The notes below the pieces were generated by a model. The model searched no databases. It saw nothing but the letters and a program-made list of their open reading frames with translations, and had not been told where the DNA came from. Source: Eledone cirrhosa (lineage: Eukaryota). Taken from it: a DNA stretch of 64,000 nucleotides. Positions within the stretch are counted from its first letter, which is position 1. Every line of letters begins with the position of its first letter. Positions 1 through 58,285 of this stretch are shown here, piece after piece. Position numbers and translations under genes: made by a program. The stretch lies in the NCBI GenBank assembly GCA_964016885.1, contig OZ024757.1, forward strand, positions 13,826,001 to 13,890,000, read 5' to 3'.

Positions 1-478
1 TGTTTAACATCTATCTTCCATGCTAGCATGGGTTTAGATGGGAATTGTCCCACATGAGGCAAGATTGATTGTCTTGTTCGTATAGGACTGTCTGGCGGGT
101 TTTCTACGGCTTGATGTCCTTCCTAACACCAACCACGTTTACAGTGTGGACTGGGAGGTTTTTACCGTGTTACCTACACGGCCACATTACAGCGTGGACT
201 GTGTGTTTTTTTGTCGTGACACCTACACGACCTCATTAGTTTGAACTGGATGTTGTGGCAACAACATAACTTTGCAGAGAAAGGGGTGGTATATATATAT
301 TCTGAGGATTTGATGAGACGTAAACACTGTATTTAAGGTTGAGTGACGCAACTTCGAGCGATTAGTGACCTCTAGACTCACCTGATCAATGAAACAATTG
401 CTAATACTTGAAATAAAGGCCCTTGTTGTACAGCCAACCATGTTACTCTTCAATCTTTCACTATTATTACTCCAAGTA

Positions 479-684
479 GGGTGGTGTATTGGTAGAAGGT
501 CGGACGCCATGCTTTGCAGCATAGAGTTACGGCCCTTTATGATCTGAGTTCAAATCCCACCGAAGTTAACTTTAACTTTCATCCTTGCGGGGTCGATAAA
601 ATAAAGTACCAGTCACGCACTGGGGTCGATATAATCGACTTTCCCCTCCCCCCAAATTGCTGGCCTTGTGCCTATATAAGAAAC
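479..684 (+). mobile_element. tRNA-derived SINE family A, with 20-bp target-site duplication
   Basis: B-box-like gagttcaaatcc and central motif ctttcatccttgcggggtcgataaaataaagtaccag. Direct repeat cactattattactccaagta at 459-478 and 685-704. Other copies: about 1710-1900(-), 6967-7150(+), 8650-8830(+), 27300-27470(+), 29155-29335(+), 45080-45266(-), 47610-47800(+), 47815-48015 (inverted pair), 61318-61440(-). Confidence 0.85.
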
Positions 685-2104
685 CACTATTATTACTCCA
701 AGTATAACCTACATAGGAATTCTTGCGAACTCACTAACTATGGAAACATCTTGTTGAGTCAAACAAAGCCGTACGTTAAAACTATCCACAATACAGAGTA
801 CTCACAACCTCTAACTGGATTACCCATAACGATAACTTGTTATCCCATATATATATATATATATATATATATATAACGAAGGAAATGTGGTAAGGAACCA
901 GGTGGACCATAACGCACCAAAGTACTCAATACTTAGGGTAGTAGAGTGGGTAATAGGAACAAGTAAGACCCCGACGGCTGAGCTCAAACCGTTTCGACGA
1001 CTAATTCTGAGTACAGAATTAGCCGTCGAAACGGCTTGAGCTCAGCCGTCGGGGTCTTACTTGTTCCTATATATATATATATATATATATATATATATAT
1101 ATATATATATATATATATATATATATATATATATATATATATATATATATATATAGGAAAAGGGTCAGGACCCCGACCGCTGAGCTCTGGCCGTTTGGAT
1201 CTAGCTGTTGAAACGGCCGGAGCTCAGCCATCGGGGTCTTGGCTCTTTTCCTATTACTCACTCTACTACCCTAAGTATCGAGTACTCTGGTATGTACGTT
1301 ATGGTCCACCTGTTTCTTACCACACTGTCTTTGATCTCTCTCTCTCTCTACCTCTCTCTCTCTCTCTACCTCTCTCTCTAGATATAGATATAAAAAACAC
1401 ACAGTCCACGCTGTAATGTGGCCGTGTAGGTAACACGGTAAAAAGTTCCCAGTTCCACACTGTAAATGTGGTTGGTGTTAGGAAGGGCATCCAGCCGTAG
1501 AAAACCTGCCAGATAGTCCTATACGAGTGAGATACGGTCACCCGACAAATCTTGCCTCAAGTGGGACAACTCCCGTCTAACCCATGCTAGCGTGGAAGAT
1601 GGACGTTAAACGATGATGATGATGATATAATCAACTTATAATCCTTTAGCATTTACATTACTCTATATTTCATGGTAAAGGCTTTATCTTACATAATTAT
1701 CTCAAATAACTGTTTCTACTTTTGGCACAAGGCCACCAATTACCCAGTGCATTACTGGTACTTTATTTTATCGACCCCGTAAGGATGAAAGGCAAAGTTA
1801 ACCTCAGCGGGATTTGAACTCAGAATGGCAAGGGCCGTAACTCAATGCGACAAAGCATGGCATCCGACCCTCTACCGATACTGCCAATCCACTGCCCTTA
1901 TCTCAAATAACAGTGAATCTATGAGATTTTGATGTTATTTATTTTGAGAACAATACCTTAACATAGGTATGAGCAGCCAGGTATGGCCAGTTTGAACAGA
2001 AAGAGGTCAGAGTTTCACTTCATTTCAATCACCATTGTGCATGAAGTCAAGACAGACTTGCATTCTTTAGATATATATTGAAGATGTCTCATTGTATCAC
2101 ATAC

Positions 2105-2612
2105 TTTCTCTCATTTTCTCTCTCTTTCTCTCTCTCTCTTTCTCTCTCTTTCTCTCTCTTTCTCTCTCCCTCTCTCTCTCTTTCTCTCTTTCTCTCGTTC
2201 TCTCTTTCTCTCTTTCTCTCTCTTTCTCTCTCTCTCTCTCTTTCTCTCTCTTTCTCTCTCTTTCTCTCTTTCTCTCTCATTTTCTCTCTTTCTCTCTCAT
2301 TTTCTCTCTTTCTCTCTCTTTCTCTCTCTTTCTCTCTCTTTCTCTCTCATTTTCTCTCTCTTTCTCTCTTTCTCTCTTCTCTCTTCTCTCTCTTTCTCTC
2401 TCTTTCTCTCTTTCTCTCTCTTTCTCTCTCTTTCTCTCCCCTCTCTCTCTCTCTTTTCTCTCTTTCTCCTCTCTCCTCTCCTTTTATCTCTCTCTCTATC
2501 CTTTTATCTCGCACTTTATCTCTCCTTTTATCTCTCTCTGTATATATGTATGTATGTATGTATATATGTATGTATATGTATGTATATGTATGTATGTATG
2601 TATGTATGTATG
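2105..2612. repeat. (CT)n/(CTTT)n pyrimidine tract followed by (TATG)n; representative of many simple repeats
   Basis: Other large low-complexity tracts: (ACC/GGT)n at 8090-8380, 10290-10765, 42910-43315, 46440-47130, 49260-50990, 60880-61280; (TA/TG)n at 28430-29150, 51990-52740, 57262-57710; (CA)n 14737-14848; (CT)n 63620-63752. Confidence 0.95.
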
Positions 2613-2667
2613 TAATGATATCCTGTCAACATATAGAAATAGCTAGTATTTCTAGACTATACAGATT

Positions 2668-55778: not shown

Positions 55779-56132
55779 TCTCCTTTTTAGGGGCTGGCAG
55801 TATATAGAAAGTGTCTACATTATGTCCCTTTTTAGGAGTTGGCAGTATATAGAAAGTGGCTACATTATTTCCATTTTTAGGGGCCGGTAGTATATACAAA
55901 GTGGCTACATTACGTCCCTTTTTAGGGGCTGACAGTATACAGAAAGTGGGTACATTGTCCCTTTTTAGGGGCTGACAGTATACAGAAAGTGGTTACATTA
56001 TGTCCATTTTTAGGGGCTGGTAGTATATAGAAAGTGGCTACATTATGTCCCTTTTTAGGAGCTGGCAGTATATAGAGTGGCTACATTATTTCCCTTTTTA
56101 GGGGCTGGTATACAGAAGGGATTACATTATGT
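55779..56132. repeat. 45-bp minisatellite, about 8 copies
   Basis: Unit cctttttaggggctggcagtatatagaaagtggctacattatgtc. Confidence 0.9.
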
Positions 56133-56391
56133 AATGTCTAATGGCTGTCTACATGTTTATTTTATTTTAAAATATAGTGAATGATTTGAGTGATATATGA
56201 CATATTTCTAACAAGACAAATGACCACATTGTTGTTGTTTAGCCCTAGGTCAAACCTTGTTGACTAATGCTCCAACTGCGACCATTCTCGTTATTAACCC
56301 TTTAGCATTTACATACCTTGACTAAGTAGATGGTTAAAATTCAGTCATGGCAGTAACCATTTACTTAGTCAAGGTATGTCATGCATCATCT

Positions 56392-56458
56392 TATTTTATC
56401 TGATGAGGACCTACTGTTGAAGATAGCTCAGTACCTCTGAAATATGTATAATAAAATA
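56392..56458 (+). ncRNA. Minimal type-I hammerhead ribozyme motif
   Basis: TATTTTAT-CTGATGA-[gga..tactg/cagta..tct]-GAAA-TATGTA-TA-ATAAAATA. Preceded by an inverted repeat at 56311-56379. Confidence 0.78.
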
Positions 56459-58214
56459 TACTTGATCACACGAATGTCTATATTTGTTAATATTTTGAAT
56501 TAATATTAATAACTCCGGAAAACCATTGCTGTGGAGTGCTTCTAATCTATTGTAAAACATTATTCATTGATTTATTCATTGAACCTTGTTTAACCTTTAA
56601 ATATATATATATATATATATATATACATCTGAGTTGACATTGCACTCAGTGCTCCTTTGGGAGCCCCTACATGGACACACTAGAAGAGGTTAACGTATGT
56701 TGATGCCCTAAGGACAGACACTGGTCTGTTGGAGACGCAGGACATAGCAGCGATAATGAGGGACAGAGACCGCTGGAGAGAACTCATCCATGGATCTCGG
56801 GAATTTTACCCGCCTTAGATAGATAGATATATATACATATATTCACTTACACATCATCATCATCTCTCTTTAATGTCGACGCTTGCATGGGTTAGATGGA
56901 TTGTCACATTATGAGACTAGGATATGTATGTATATATATATATATATATATATATGTATATATGTATATGTATGTATGTGTATATATCATCATCACCGTT
57001 TTACGTCCGTTCTTCCACGCTAGCATGGGTTAGACAGGTTGTCCTGTTGTGGGCAGTGTCTGGTCGGCTGACCATGCCTTGCTCATACAGGAACTGATCT
57101 GGCTTGATTTCTACAGCTGGATGCCCTTCCTAACACCAACCTCATTTACAGTGAGTGCTGGGTGCTTTTTTGTGGCGCCTACACGTCCACTTTACAGTGT
57201 GGGCTGGGTGCTTTTTTGCCGTGGCACCTCCACGACCACCTTGCGGTGGGGGGTGTGGGGGCATATGTATGTGTATATATGTATGTATATATATGTGTGT
57301 GTGTGTGTGTATGTGTATGTGTGTATGTATATGTATGTGTGTATATGTGTGTGTGTGTGTGTATGTGTGTATGTATATGTGTGTATATGTGTGTGTGTGT
57401 GTATGTATATGTGTGTGTGTGTGTATGTATATGTGTGTGTGTATATATGTGTGTGTATGTATATGTGTATATATATATGTGTGTGTATGTATATGTGTAT
57501 ATATATATATGTGTGTGTATGTATATGTGTTTATATATATATATGTGTGTGTATGTATATGTGTTTATATATATATATGTGTGTGTATGTATATGTGTTT
57601 ATATATATATATGTGTGTGTATGTATATGTGTTTATATATATATATGTGTGTGTATGTATATGTGTTTATATATATATATGTGTGTGTATGTATATGTGT
57701 ATATGTATAAAGAGTGGTGTGCTCATGAGCAAAGTTGCTATAAAATAGGGTGTAGACCCTTAGAGATGGAAAAAGAAGTTGCCATTGGCTGATATGTGTG
57801 TATACATATATACATATATACATATATACATATTGTCATTTTGCAAAAAAAAACACAGTAGTGTTGATCATATATTTTTTAAAATTATAATGTAATGCTC
57901 AGAAGTATTTTCTTAGAGCTTAATATTTGTAACTGACTACTAAATTGAAATATATACACACATATATATATATATATATATATATATATATATATATGTA
58001 GGAGGTGAGTTTTATTGTAGTACAATAAATATACAATAATTATACTCCTCTCCCTCCACTTTTTACTCTCATCTCCTCCTCTTTTTCATCATTTCCACCC
58101 CACCCCCCTCAATTTTTTCCCCAATATCATACATCAATCTAAAACTACTTTTCATATGTTGATTTAAAACTGCACTATTCACAAGTGTTTTTTAACCTTC
58201 ATATCATGTCTCCC

Positions 58215-58285
58215 TATTTTATCTGACGAAAACGCAAATGTTATCACATGATGATATTTGTTTTTGAAATGCGCATAATAAAATA
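58215..58285 (+). ncRNA. Minimal type-I hammerhead ribozyme motif
   Basis: TATTTTAT-CTGACGA-[aaa-c-gcaaatgttatc-acat-gatgatatttgt-t-ttt]-GAAA-TGCGCA-TA-ATAAAATA. Confidence 0.82.

Follow-up and report, generated by a model that had tools for sequence, protein, structure and literature searches.

A duplicated bulged hairpin as a candidate docking site for the reverse transcriptase of Hydra-clade Penelope-like elements

Introduction

Why does a 64-kb stretch of Eledone cirrhosa DNA contain hammerhead ribozyme motifs in small islands between (TA)n tracts? The stretch (assembly GCA_964016885.1, contig OZ024757.1, positions 13,826,001 to 13,890,000 of the forward strand; its 64,000 nucleotides are called the window, and coordinates below count from its first letter) covers introns of what is likely the Notch gene. 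The initial annotation, made from the letters alone, took the islands for pseudo-long terminal repeat (pLTR) remnants of Penelope-like elements (PLEs) and saw in them a large population of ribozyme elements without an open reading frame (ORF). Its observation is partly confirmed and its interpretation partly supported by the present bioinformatic analysis. I found that the islands are very probably 5′-truncated, often folded-back 3′ ends of PLEs of the Hydra clade, together with at least one ORF-less derivative. I also found that these elements carry a bulged hairpin, in many cases twice, and that their copies tend to end just 5′ of it. The hairpin may be the site where the reverse transcriptase (RT) docks.

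Hammerhead motifs and the elements that carry them

The window was searched with a type I hammerhead descriptor (stem I of at least 4 bp, CUGANGA, 4–45 nt, GAAA, a closed stem III, and UH). It was found that nine sites match in full. Seven lie on the plus strand (14189..14246, 26036..26095, 38236..38300, 39156..39210, 39513..39576, 56392..56458, and 58215..58285), and these are the seven contiguous loci already named by the initial annotation. The other two are inverted twins on the minus strand, matching at 38198 and 38944 and lying in foldback arms (38142..38206 and 38895..38949). Across two sets, each of 300 dinucleotide shuffles, the descriptor matched on average 0.06 and 0.07 times and never more than twice. 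The hammerhead motifs in the window are real. The core and stems I to III of the type I hammerhead (CUGANGA, GAAA, UH) are present, stem III only as a palindrome that pairs in a dimer.

To what do the islands belong? In genome searches, all seven proved to be members of dispersed families. The first-look candidates of the seven families numbered 765, 1651, 17, 2164, 1376, 2480, and 1818. The 17 candidates of the 39156 family are an undercount, since 53 read-through copies were found later. In the six families with 765–2480 candidates each, the best were 89–100% identical. A (TA)n-inserted, hammerhead-bearing family, Hydra-1_Obim of Octopus bimaculoides, is in the supplement of Craig et al. 2021 (PMC8557442). 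Families of this size, one relative of which is published, do not bear out the expectation that standard repeat annotation would miss the islands. The island copies share a fixed 3′ end in (TA)n, a variable 5′ end, and frequently an inverted arm, and every family has a hammerhead of its own.

It was then asked whether protein-coding elements stand behind these ends. In the 58215 family, an endonuclease (EN) domain lies upstream in the same orientation in 8 of 20 close copies. An RT search of the genome returned 42,742 candidates, of which 136 were scored, many of them in frames of about 820 codons. Among ten loci fetched around long ORFs, seven have the order hammerhead, ORF (a frame of 818–821 codons), hammerhead, and over the 3′ end they are 86–92% identical to the 58215-family copy of the window. 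The ORF starts after the second hairpin (hairpin 2, below) in the 56392 family and in seven of eight loci of the 39156 family; the 38236 family is tied to an RT-EN ORF through locus L309. Thus, the association with RT and GIY-YIG ORFs holds for four of the seven window families (58215, 56392, 39156, and 38236). The order in full units is hammerhead, hairpin 1, a spacer of 50–80 nt, hairpin 2, ATG, RT, linker, GIY-YIG, 3′ untranslated region (UTR), and hammerhead. The units are 3.5–3.9 kb long, with a 3′ UTR of about 1 kb and tails of about 80–145 nt.

Which clade is this? Frames of 821 and 786 codons contain YRDD and a C-terminal Y-x-G nuclease region in a single ORF. By eye, an RWK-type motif (R-W-T/R/G/K) and S-D-K-T were seen in the ORF translations, and a CxCX5C linker with CxxC and CxH around E and N in the loci L184, L221, L224, and L061. 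The diagnostic set given for the Hydra clade in PMC8557442 is RW(K), DKT, CxCX5C, and CxxC/CxH. A hammerhead in the pLTR, partial tandem and inverted copies, and (TA)n insertion were all seen. Support from Pfam is weak, as the one GIY-YIG match, at E 0.0096, falls short of the cut-off and the full proteins gave none. A Neptune/Nematis PLE was rejected, as it needs a CX2-5CxxC linker and DKG and these ORFs have CxCX5C and DKT. A Naiad PLE was also rejected, as it needs an N-terminal EN and no canonical hammerhead; here the EN is C-terminal and hammerheads are present. The probable assignment to Hydra rests on the motifs and on the hairpin common to published Hydra consensuses, with the Hydra ORF shown for four of the seven window families and hairpin 1 carried by all seven. 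Since the Hydra clade and PLE hammerheads are already published, the window hammerheads are, judged from sequence, ordinary for their clade and of a known kind. The initial reading as Penelope-like pLTR hammerheads with a palindromic stem III, inserted in (TA)n, was right.

An ORF-less class had also been proposed. This was shown only for the 14189 family, which is non-autonomous, as no PLE protein match was found in 12 read-through loci and its body of about 2.3 kb has no long frame; most of the other islands are 5′-truncated ends of autonomous elements. A high-copy ORF-less Penelope-like element of about 2.3–2.5 kb, with internal repeats, a hammerhead, and both hairpins, was seen at L303:6600-8920 and L324-L335. 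RT fragments near two copies of the 39513 family were considered as its parent and rejected, as they belong to neighbouring elements or are unlinked.

Some loci outside the window are of interest in their own right. L221 (G000:C1:91474500-91484400) has head-to-tail Hydra elements of 3.54 kb with open frames of 784–786 codons. Its hammerhead is a U3-A8 core variant in which stem II is long and a palindromic loop caps the 4-bp stem III. Most short copies of the family that were seen break inside stem II. L222 (299-bp period) and L211/L212 (257-bp period) are retrozyme-like tandem arrays of the L221 family; the 299-bp unit of L222 holds a shortened complete hammerhead and both hairpins and is a candidate source of circular RNA. 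The Argonauta hians protein P0019 goes by the name 'GATA zinc finger domain-containing protein 14-like' and shares 37% identity with the Hydra ORF; it is likely an element under a wrong annotation.

A duplicated bulged hairpin

All seven families have a hairpin about 100–125 nt past the hammerhead core. It has a 4-bp lower stem (R-C-U-C/G-A-G-Y) and a variable upper stem, with 2 nt (U-N) bulging out on the 3′ side; a 3′ R-C-U completes the motif. In the window, hairpin 1 was found on the plus strand at 14306..14368 (with a long upper insert; it starts the tail of the 14189 family, whose tail end is near 14441), 14580..14606 (an abundant Hydra family with a U3-A8 variant hammerhead), 38352..38374 (with one 3′ substitution), 39266..39308 (tail end near 39360), 39616..39639, and 56512..56540 (tail end near 56605 in (TA)n). 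The closing pair of the hairpin at 39616 is G-C, compensatory to A-U in the other window families.

In full-length elements of the 58215 type, a second hairpin lies 90 nt further, just beyond the tail end. Is it duplicated in the other families as well? Hairpin 2 was predicted directly after the long end of the other families and then searched genome-wide with a reversed control. The predicted hairpin was found with 19 matches for the 56392 family, 310 for the U3-A8 family, and 53 for the 39156 family (two of which are tail duplications), and the reversed controls gave 0 each. The ORF-less 14189 family keeps both hairpins, with 90 matches to hairpin 2, which had been seen there beforehand.

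The hairpin is not limited to this genome. From an alignment of 38 related proteins, 78 metagenome loci were obtained, near-duplicates included; 41 with at least 100 nt upstream of the N-terminal match were kept, and 37 were dropped. Within 200 nt, two copies of the hairpin were found in 22 of the 41 loci, one in 13, and none in 6. Thus 35 of 41 have it; among the controls it occurs in 94 of 8200 shuffles, in 2 of 369 ORF blocks, and in 2 of 41 antisense strands. Hairpin 2 lies about 35–95 nt upstream of the ORF start in most of the metagenome loci.

The pairing was assessed in 67 distinct hairpins, of which 51 were chosen by a sequence pattern that demanded no inner pairing and 16, from the host genome, by hand. 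With a 2-nt skip on the 3′ side, the upper stem has a mean of 2.34 bp, and at least 2 bp in 44 of the 67, whereas five other registers give at most 0.81 bp. The bulge begins with U in 50 of the 51 pattern-chosen hairpins. Covariation is visible at the closing pair (G-C in 57, A-U in 9, a mismatch in 1) and at the first upper pair (C-G in 46, U-A in 16). In a MAFFT alignment of 31 hairpins the 5′ arm falls out of register, and the pair counts were not taken from it.

Is the hairpin already known? The published consensus Hydra-1_Ajap (PMC8557442) starts 2 nt before hairpin 1 and has both hairpins before the ATG, and two other published Hydra records terminate with hairpin 1 and the tail. The words hairpin and stem-loop are absent from the main text and supplement of PMC8557442, which makes no mention of a twin hairpin although its consensus sequences contain one. 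No prior description was found in the literature searched, a search that lies outside subscription papers, Repbase reports, and the supplements of PMC11167929 (Figs S1B, S2). The twin bulged hairpin thus appears undescribed. Nine hairpin-bearing loci gave no Rfam match at the gathering score. A twister-like reading was rejected, as Rfam gave no match; the pseudoknot elements of twister are, as far as I can judge, absent from the hairpin. Other hammerhead families of this genome, namely L128 (310-bp period) and three small clusters, have no hairpin matched by the pattern, so the hairpin may be Hydra-specific.

Copy ends relative to the hairpins

Where do the copies end? Ends were mapped against natural read-through copies. 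This left out loci fetched for parents and copies flanked by less than 300 nt; one of the references is from a sister subfamily. Among 169 host-genome copies of five families, the ends of 69 lie between −12 and +2 of hairpin 1 and those of 88 in the same range of hairpin 2; 3 copies read through, and the remaining 9 end at other places. Combined, 157 of 169 copies terminate just 5′ of one or the other hairpin. In three further rows, where short ends were scored, 13 of 24, 14 of 19, and 12 of 37 copies stop at hairpin 1, and the rest mostly read on in two of the rows. The row of the 39513 family is uninformative, its reference anchor having been mis-picked. In the metagenome, 36 loci were compared and 16 were informative, of which 13 end at −5 to +1 of a hairpin (two of them by eye, at variant hairpins). 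At G000:C2:7215684-7215859, the 39156-family tail recurs in tandem every 104 bp, approximately from one end site to the other.

Other features of the window

The window copies are solo or inverted, and none is a head-to-tail tandem of hammerhead units. Compared with its family, the copy at 26036 has 2 nt inserted in stem III; it terminates in (TA)n at the short end, about 26152. The short end, in (TA)n at about 58320, is also where the truncated Hydra element with the 58215 hammerhead at its 3′ end stops, and an inverted remnant of the tail end of the 58215 family lies at 58000..58030 on the minus strand. The copy at 39513 has an inverted twin on the minus strand, at 39477. Truncation has removed the native stem I from the 39513 copy; what remains is a chance 4-pair stem with wobbles, compared with 6 pairs in the family.

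Degenerate or halved hammerheads had been noted too, and eight were confirmed (298, 1028, 14532, 15152, 22354, 37700, 38571, and 54916), of which 15152 is an extra match when the descriptor is relaxed by one mismatch. On the plus strand, 298..396 is a degenerate hammerhead of a repeated family; its stem II is long and its cleavage triplet mutated. At 1028..1068 lies a 3′ half of the U3-A8 family that ends at the short end, with further copies of hairpin 1 nearby at 1260 (plus) and 947 (minus). The foldback at 14450..14660 (plus) belongs to a very abundant Hydra family and has a U3-A8 variant hammerhead reduced to its 3′ half (GAAA at 14532), followed by the tail. The degenerate hammerhead at 15148..15194 (plus) has one core substitution. 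A foldback copy at 22290..22505 (plus) has a core-mutated hammerhead and a variant hairpin 1, and the same family recurs at 54916 and near 18000. Another foldback, 38455..38800 (plus), contains a hammerhead 3′ half of a different family (GAAA at 38571). The proposed density of about one cassette per 4 kb is reached only when the broken ones are counted; intact cassettes occur about once per 7–9 kb. A hammerhead thought to be split by a Helitron at 12734 could not be upheld, as it matched only itself in the genome and the pattern found no 3′ half between 12.7 and 20 kb. Six covarying stem I pairs had been named, of which one occurs in no full or relaxed match and another only in the core-mutated copy at 22354. 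An Rfam search of the window gave no hammerhead among the matches listed (the best 150 of 237), and its miRNA matches were rejected as (TA)n artefacts.

Four EGF-repeat exons lie on the plus strand of the window at 21644..21783, 25705..25839, 27068..27266, and 40830..40967 (the last with an approximate start), and their best PDB matches are Notch1 and Delta-like. Two LNR repeats lie 137 kb beyond the window on the same strand. Because of the four EGF exons and the downstream LNR repeats, the host gene is likely Notch, as initially annotated.

By folding, the islands 38095-38335, 38846-39262, and 39378-39616 are adjacent near-perfect foldbacks in one intron, 90–95% paired. They are likely substrates of editing as double-stranded RNA (dsRNA). 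Stem III duplexes made only of A and U were computed at −2 to −3 kcal/mol, and the palindromes of 14189 and 58215 at −7.2 and −10.5 kcal/mol. Since three islands would form long duplexes and AU-only stem III dimers would be weak, the hammerheads are likely inert passengers in the Notch pre-mRNA.

The window also contains a broken non-LTR retrotransposon at 29420-31964 (minus; RVT_1, E 7e-17, and zf-RVT domains), a tRNA match of 66.7 bits at 15571-15643 (plus) with a weaker one at 23722-23794 (minus), and homogeneous satellite arrays of 36 bp and 61 bp at 43578-45416 and about 61700-63200. A young dispersed repeat of about 300–350 bp with 92–98% identity (18083, 23465, 34348, 37767, 58811, and 60107) is likely a short interspersed element (SINE).

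Discussion

Why should copies end just 5′ of a conserved hairpin? AT-rich DNA is nicked by a Poseidon PLE protein, which begins cDNA synthesis at two internal sites, one on each side of the tail (PMC11167929). Its RT starts near +111–118 and requires RNA to +172, about 55–60 nt 3′ of the start sites, and hammerhead cleavage is not required in vitro. A similar course may be proposed for Hydra. The endonuclease would nick (TA)n, and the RT would sit on a longer-than-unit RNA, at either hairpin 1 or hairpin 2, and begin a few bases upstream of the bound hairpin on an A/U-rich stretch. A start at hairpin 1 would give the short end, and a start at hairpin 2 the end bearing the tail. Early termination and snap-back would produce the small palindromic islands. 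With one hairpin per start site, the tail would therefore be hairpin 1 plus its spacer. That an ORF-less family has kept both hairpins is consistent with their serving in cis as a signal for mobilisation in trans.

Taken jointly, it is reasonably probable that the islands are truncated Hydra-clade ends whose two preferred ends lie just 5′ of RT-docking copies of the hairpin. That each hairpin docks the RT and sets an internal cDNA start site I consider slightly less secure, but still favoured. The general form, in which the duplicated hairpin of the Hydra-clade PLEs of cnidarians, echinoderms, cephalopods, and other aquatic hosts is an RT landing pad 3′ of the start site and the tail is the stretch from pad to pad, seems to me only a little better than even.

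Several observations weigh against this reading. The docking role is read from sequence, not from biochemistry or expression. The genome search for the hairpin 2 predicted in the 39513 family gave no match, so the prediction failed there, and no parent ORF was found for the 26036 and 39513 families. The strict motif is absent from 6 of the 41 metagenome loci, and 3 of the 16 informative metagenome ends miss the hairpin. The upper stems often have 1–2 bp, single hairpins often fold no better than shuffles, and the minimum-energy structure favours a different register in 3 of 9 folded hairpins. Start sites are known only within about 10 nt because the local alignment drifts into (TA)n. Copies in one family are not independent, and the real sample is about eight families plus the metagenome loci. 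Finally, Poseidon initiation falls inside an AC-rich stem-loop, in a different clade from Hydra (PMC11167929).

Could the hairpin act at another step? It might be an RNA-processing signal, where a host nuclease or an unknown ribozyme cuts on its 5′ side to give the template its 3′ end, or a DNA or cDNA structure read by GIY-YIG at integration. I regard this as a tentative possibility. Cutting just 5′ of each hairpin would give the same ends, the 3′ arm with R-C-U is near-palindromic and could dimerise, and the tail of the D. virilis element is reported as necessary for EN recognition (cited in PMC11167929). However, a cut 5′ of hairpin 2 would strip this hairpin from the RNA needed for RT recognition, and the nine loci without an Rfam match speak against a ribozyme. 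The conserved bases are presumably too few for a known ribozyme, which also counts against processing. A fixed double-stranded DNA site is disfavoured by the inter-arm spacer, which varies from 6 to 55 nt, and the Poseidon protein starts internally on uncut RNA in vitro (PMC11167929). It is also conceivable, but unlikely, that the hairpins control translation or transcription from the 5′ UTR, for example through autoregulatory binding of the element's protein, and that they lie near the ends as a side effect of A/U-rich priming spots. The short distance between hairpin 2 and the ORF start in most loci would suit such control, and the ends do lie on short TA-like stretches able to anneal to the target. 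Yet the ORF-less family retains both hairpins, and A/U-rich stretches also occur elsewhere in the pLTR and tail, where only 9 of 169 copies end.

The remaining alternative is that of the initial annotation, an ORF-less ribozyme population enriched in Notch, which may cleave or regulate the Notch pre-mRNA. As a background, 40 blindly placed 10-kb stretches (L336-L375; 399,600 bases) were searched with the same descriptor and gave 27 full matches, which corresponds to 4.3 in 64 kb, about one every 15 kb. The window exceeds this about twofold, with a Poisson P of 0.03 for the nine matches but 0.15 for the seven independent loci, and thus the hammerheads are not Notch-specific. The 14189 family is truly ORF-less, the hammerhead core is on the Notch sense strand at all seven loci, and two cassettes 917 nt apart have an identical stem III palindrome. 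Against cleavage stand the three islands whose long duplexes would bury the ribozyme and the low stability of the AU-only stem III duplexes. In addition, single minimal hammerheads gave no in vitro cleavage (PMC4209133), and the PAc ribozyme required protein (PMC11167929). A role in Notch is therefore very improbable.

If an RT-docking hairpin is the correct reading, what does it mean? The question it would address is how internal start sites are selected by PLE RTs, which are the nearest kin of telomerase RT, and for what reason the tail is optional in copies. The hairpin would be the first cis signal for a PLE RT defined by sequence and structure, and a portable tag for internal-initiation target-primed reverse transcription by a telomerase-related enzyme. 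Being about 25 nt long, conserved across phyla, and present at both ends, it offers an exact target for mutagenesis, for which there are ORFs that appear intact. Curators can also use it to call the boundaries of Hydra elements and spot ORF-less partners. If the blind sample is representative, the 3.0-Gb genome has about 2 × 10^5 hammerhead motifs by extrapolation, which, together with numerous perfect foldbacks in introns, would supply dsRNA in large amounts. Octopuses are a group with heavy adenosine-to-inosine (A-to-I) editing.

Comparison with known systems

The elements resemble the C-terminal EN+ PLEs of the Hydra clade described in PMC8557442 in their single RT and GIY-YIG ORF, clade motifs, pLTR hammerhead, (TA)n target, and inverted truncated copies. 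They differ in size: the units here are 3.5–3.9 kb with a 3′ UTR of about 1 kb, whereas the published ones are generally <3 kb, and the tails are about 80–145 nt here and 30–40 bp there. Penelope-like expansions are also annotated in O. vulgaris (PMC13282606).

For metazoan PLE hammerheads, Cervera and De la Pena (2014, PMC4209133) described within-genome diversity, solo copies, and pairs on opposite strands. The present motifs are like those in their long stem II, short stem I, palindromic stem III, many families, and U3-A8 variant. The total of roughly 2 × 10^5 extrapolated here stands against about 9,000 in Xenopus that were called remarkable there, although the descriptors differ and the two numbers are not strictly comparable. 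Like non-LTR retrozymes (PMC7229834; bioRxiv 10.64898/2026.07.22.740005), there are non-autonomous hammerhead-bearing PLE derivatives here, including the 299-bp tandem arrays at L222. Unlike retrozymes, the window copies have no arrangement of at least two head-to-tail units, which is present at L222.

Poseidon PAc of Anolis (Frangieh et al. 2024, PMC11167929) shares two RT starts bracketing the tail, an AT-rich target, and a need for 3′ RNA, which in Hydra would follow from the copy ends. It is of another clade, its starts fall within one AC-rich stem-loop, and the description in PMC11167929 does not include a duplicated, sequence-conserved hairpin. Another parallel is the 3′ stem-loop of the eel element UnaL2 (PMC1636434), of the long and short interspersed element (LINE/SINE) type, which is a small internal-loop hairpin needed in cis if the element is to retrotranspose and common to non-autonomous partners; a cis role of the Hydra hairpin is suggested by its sharing with the ORF-less family. 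In contrast, the UnaL2 stem-loop is in the copied 3′ tail, whereas the Hydra hairpin would lie 3′ of the end that it marks, uncopied there, and is duplicated.

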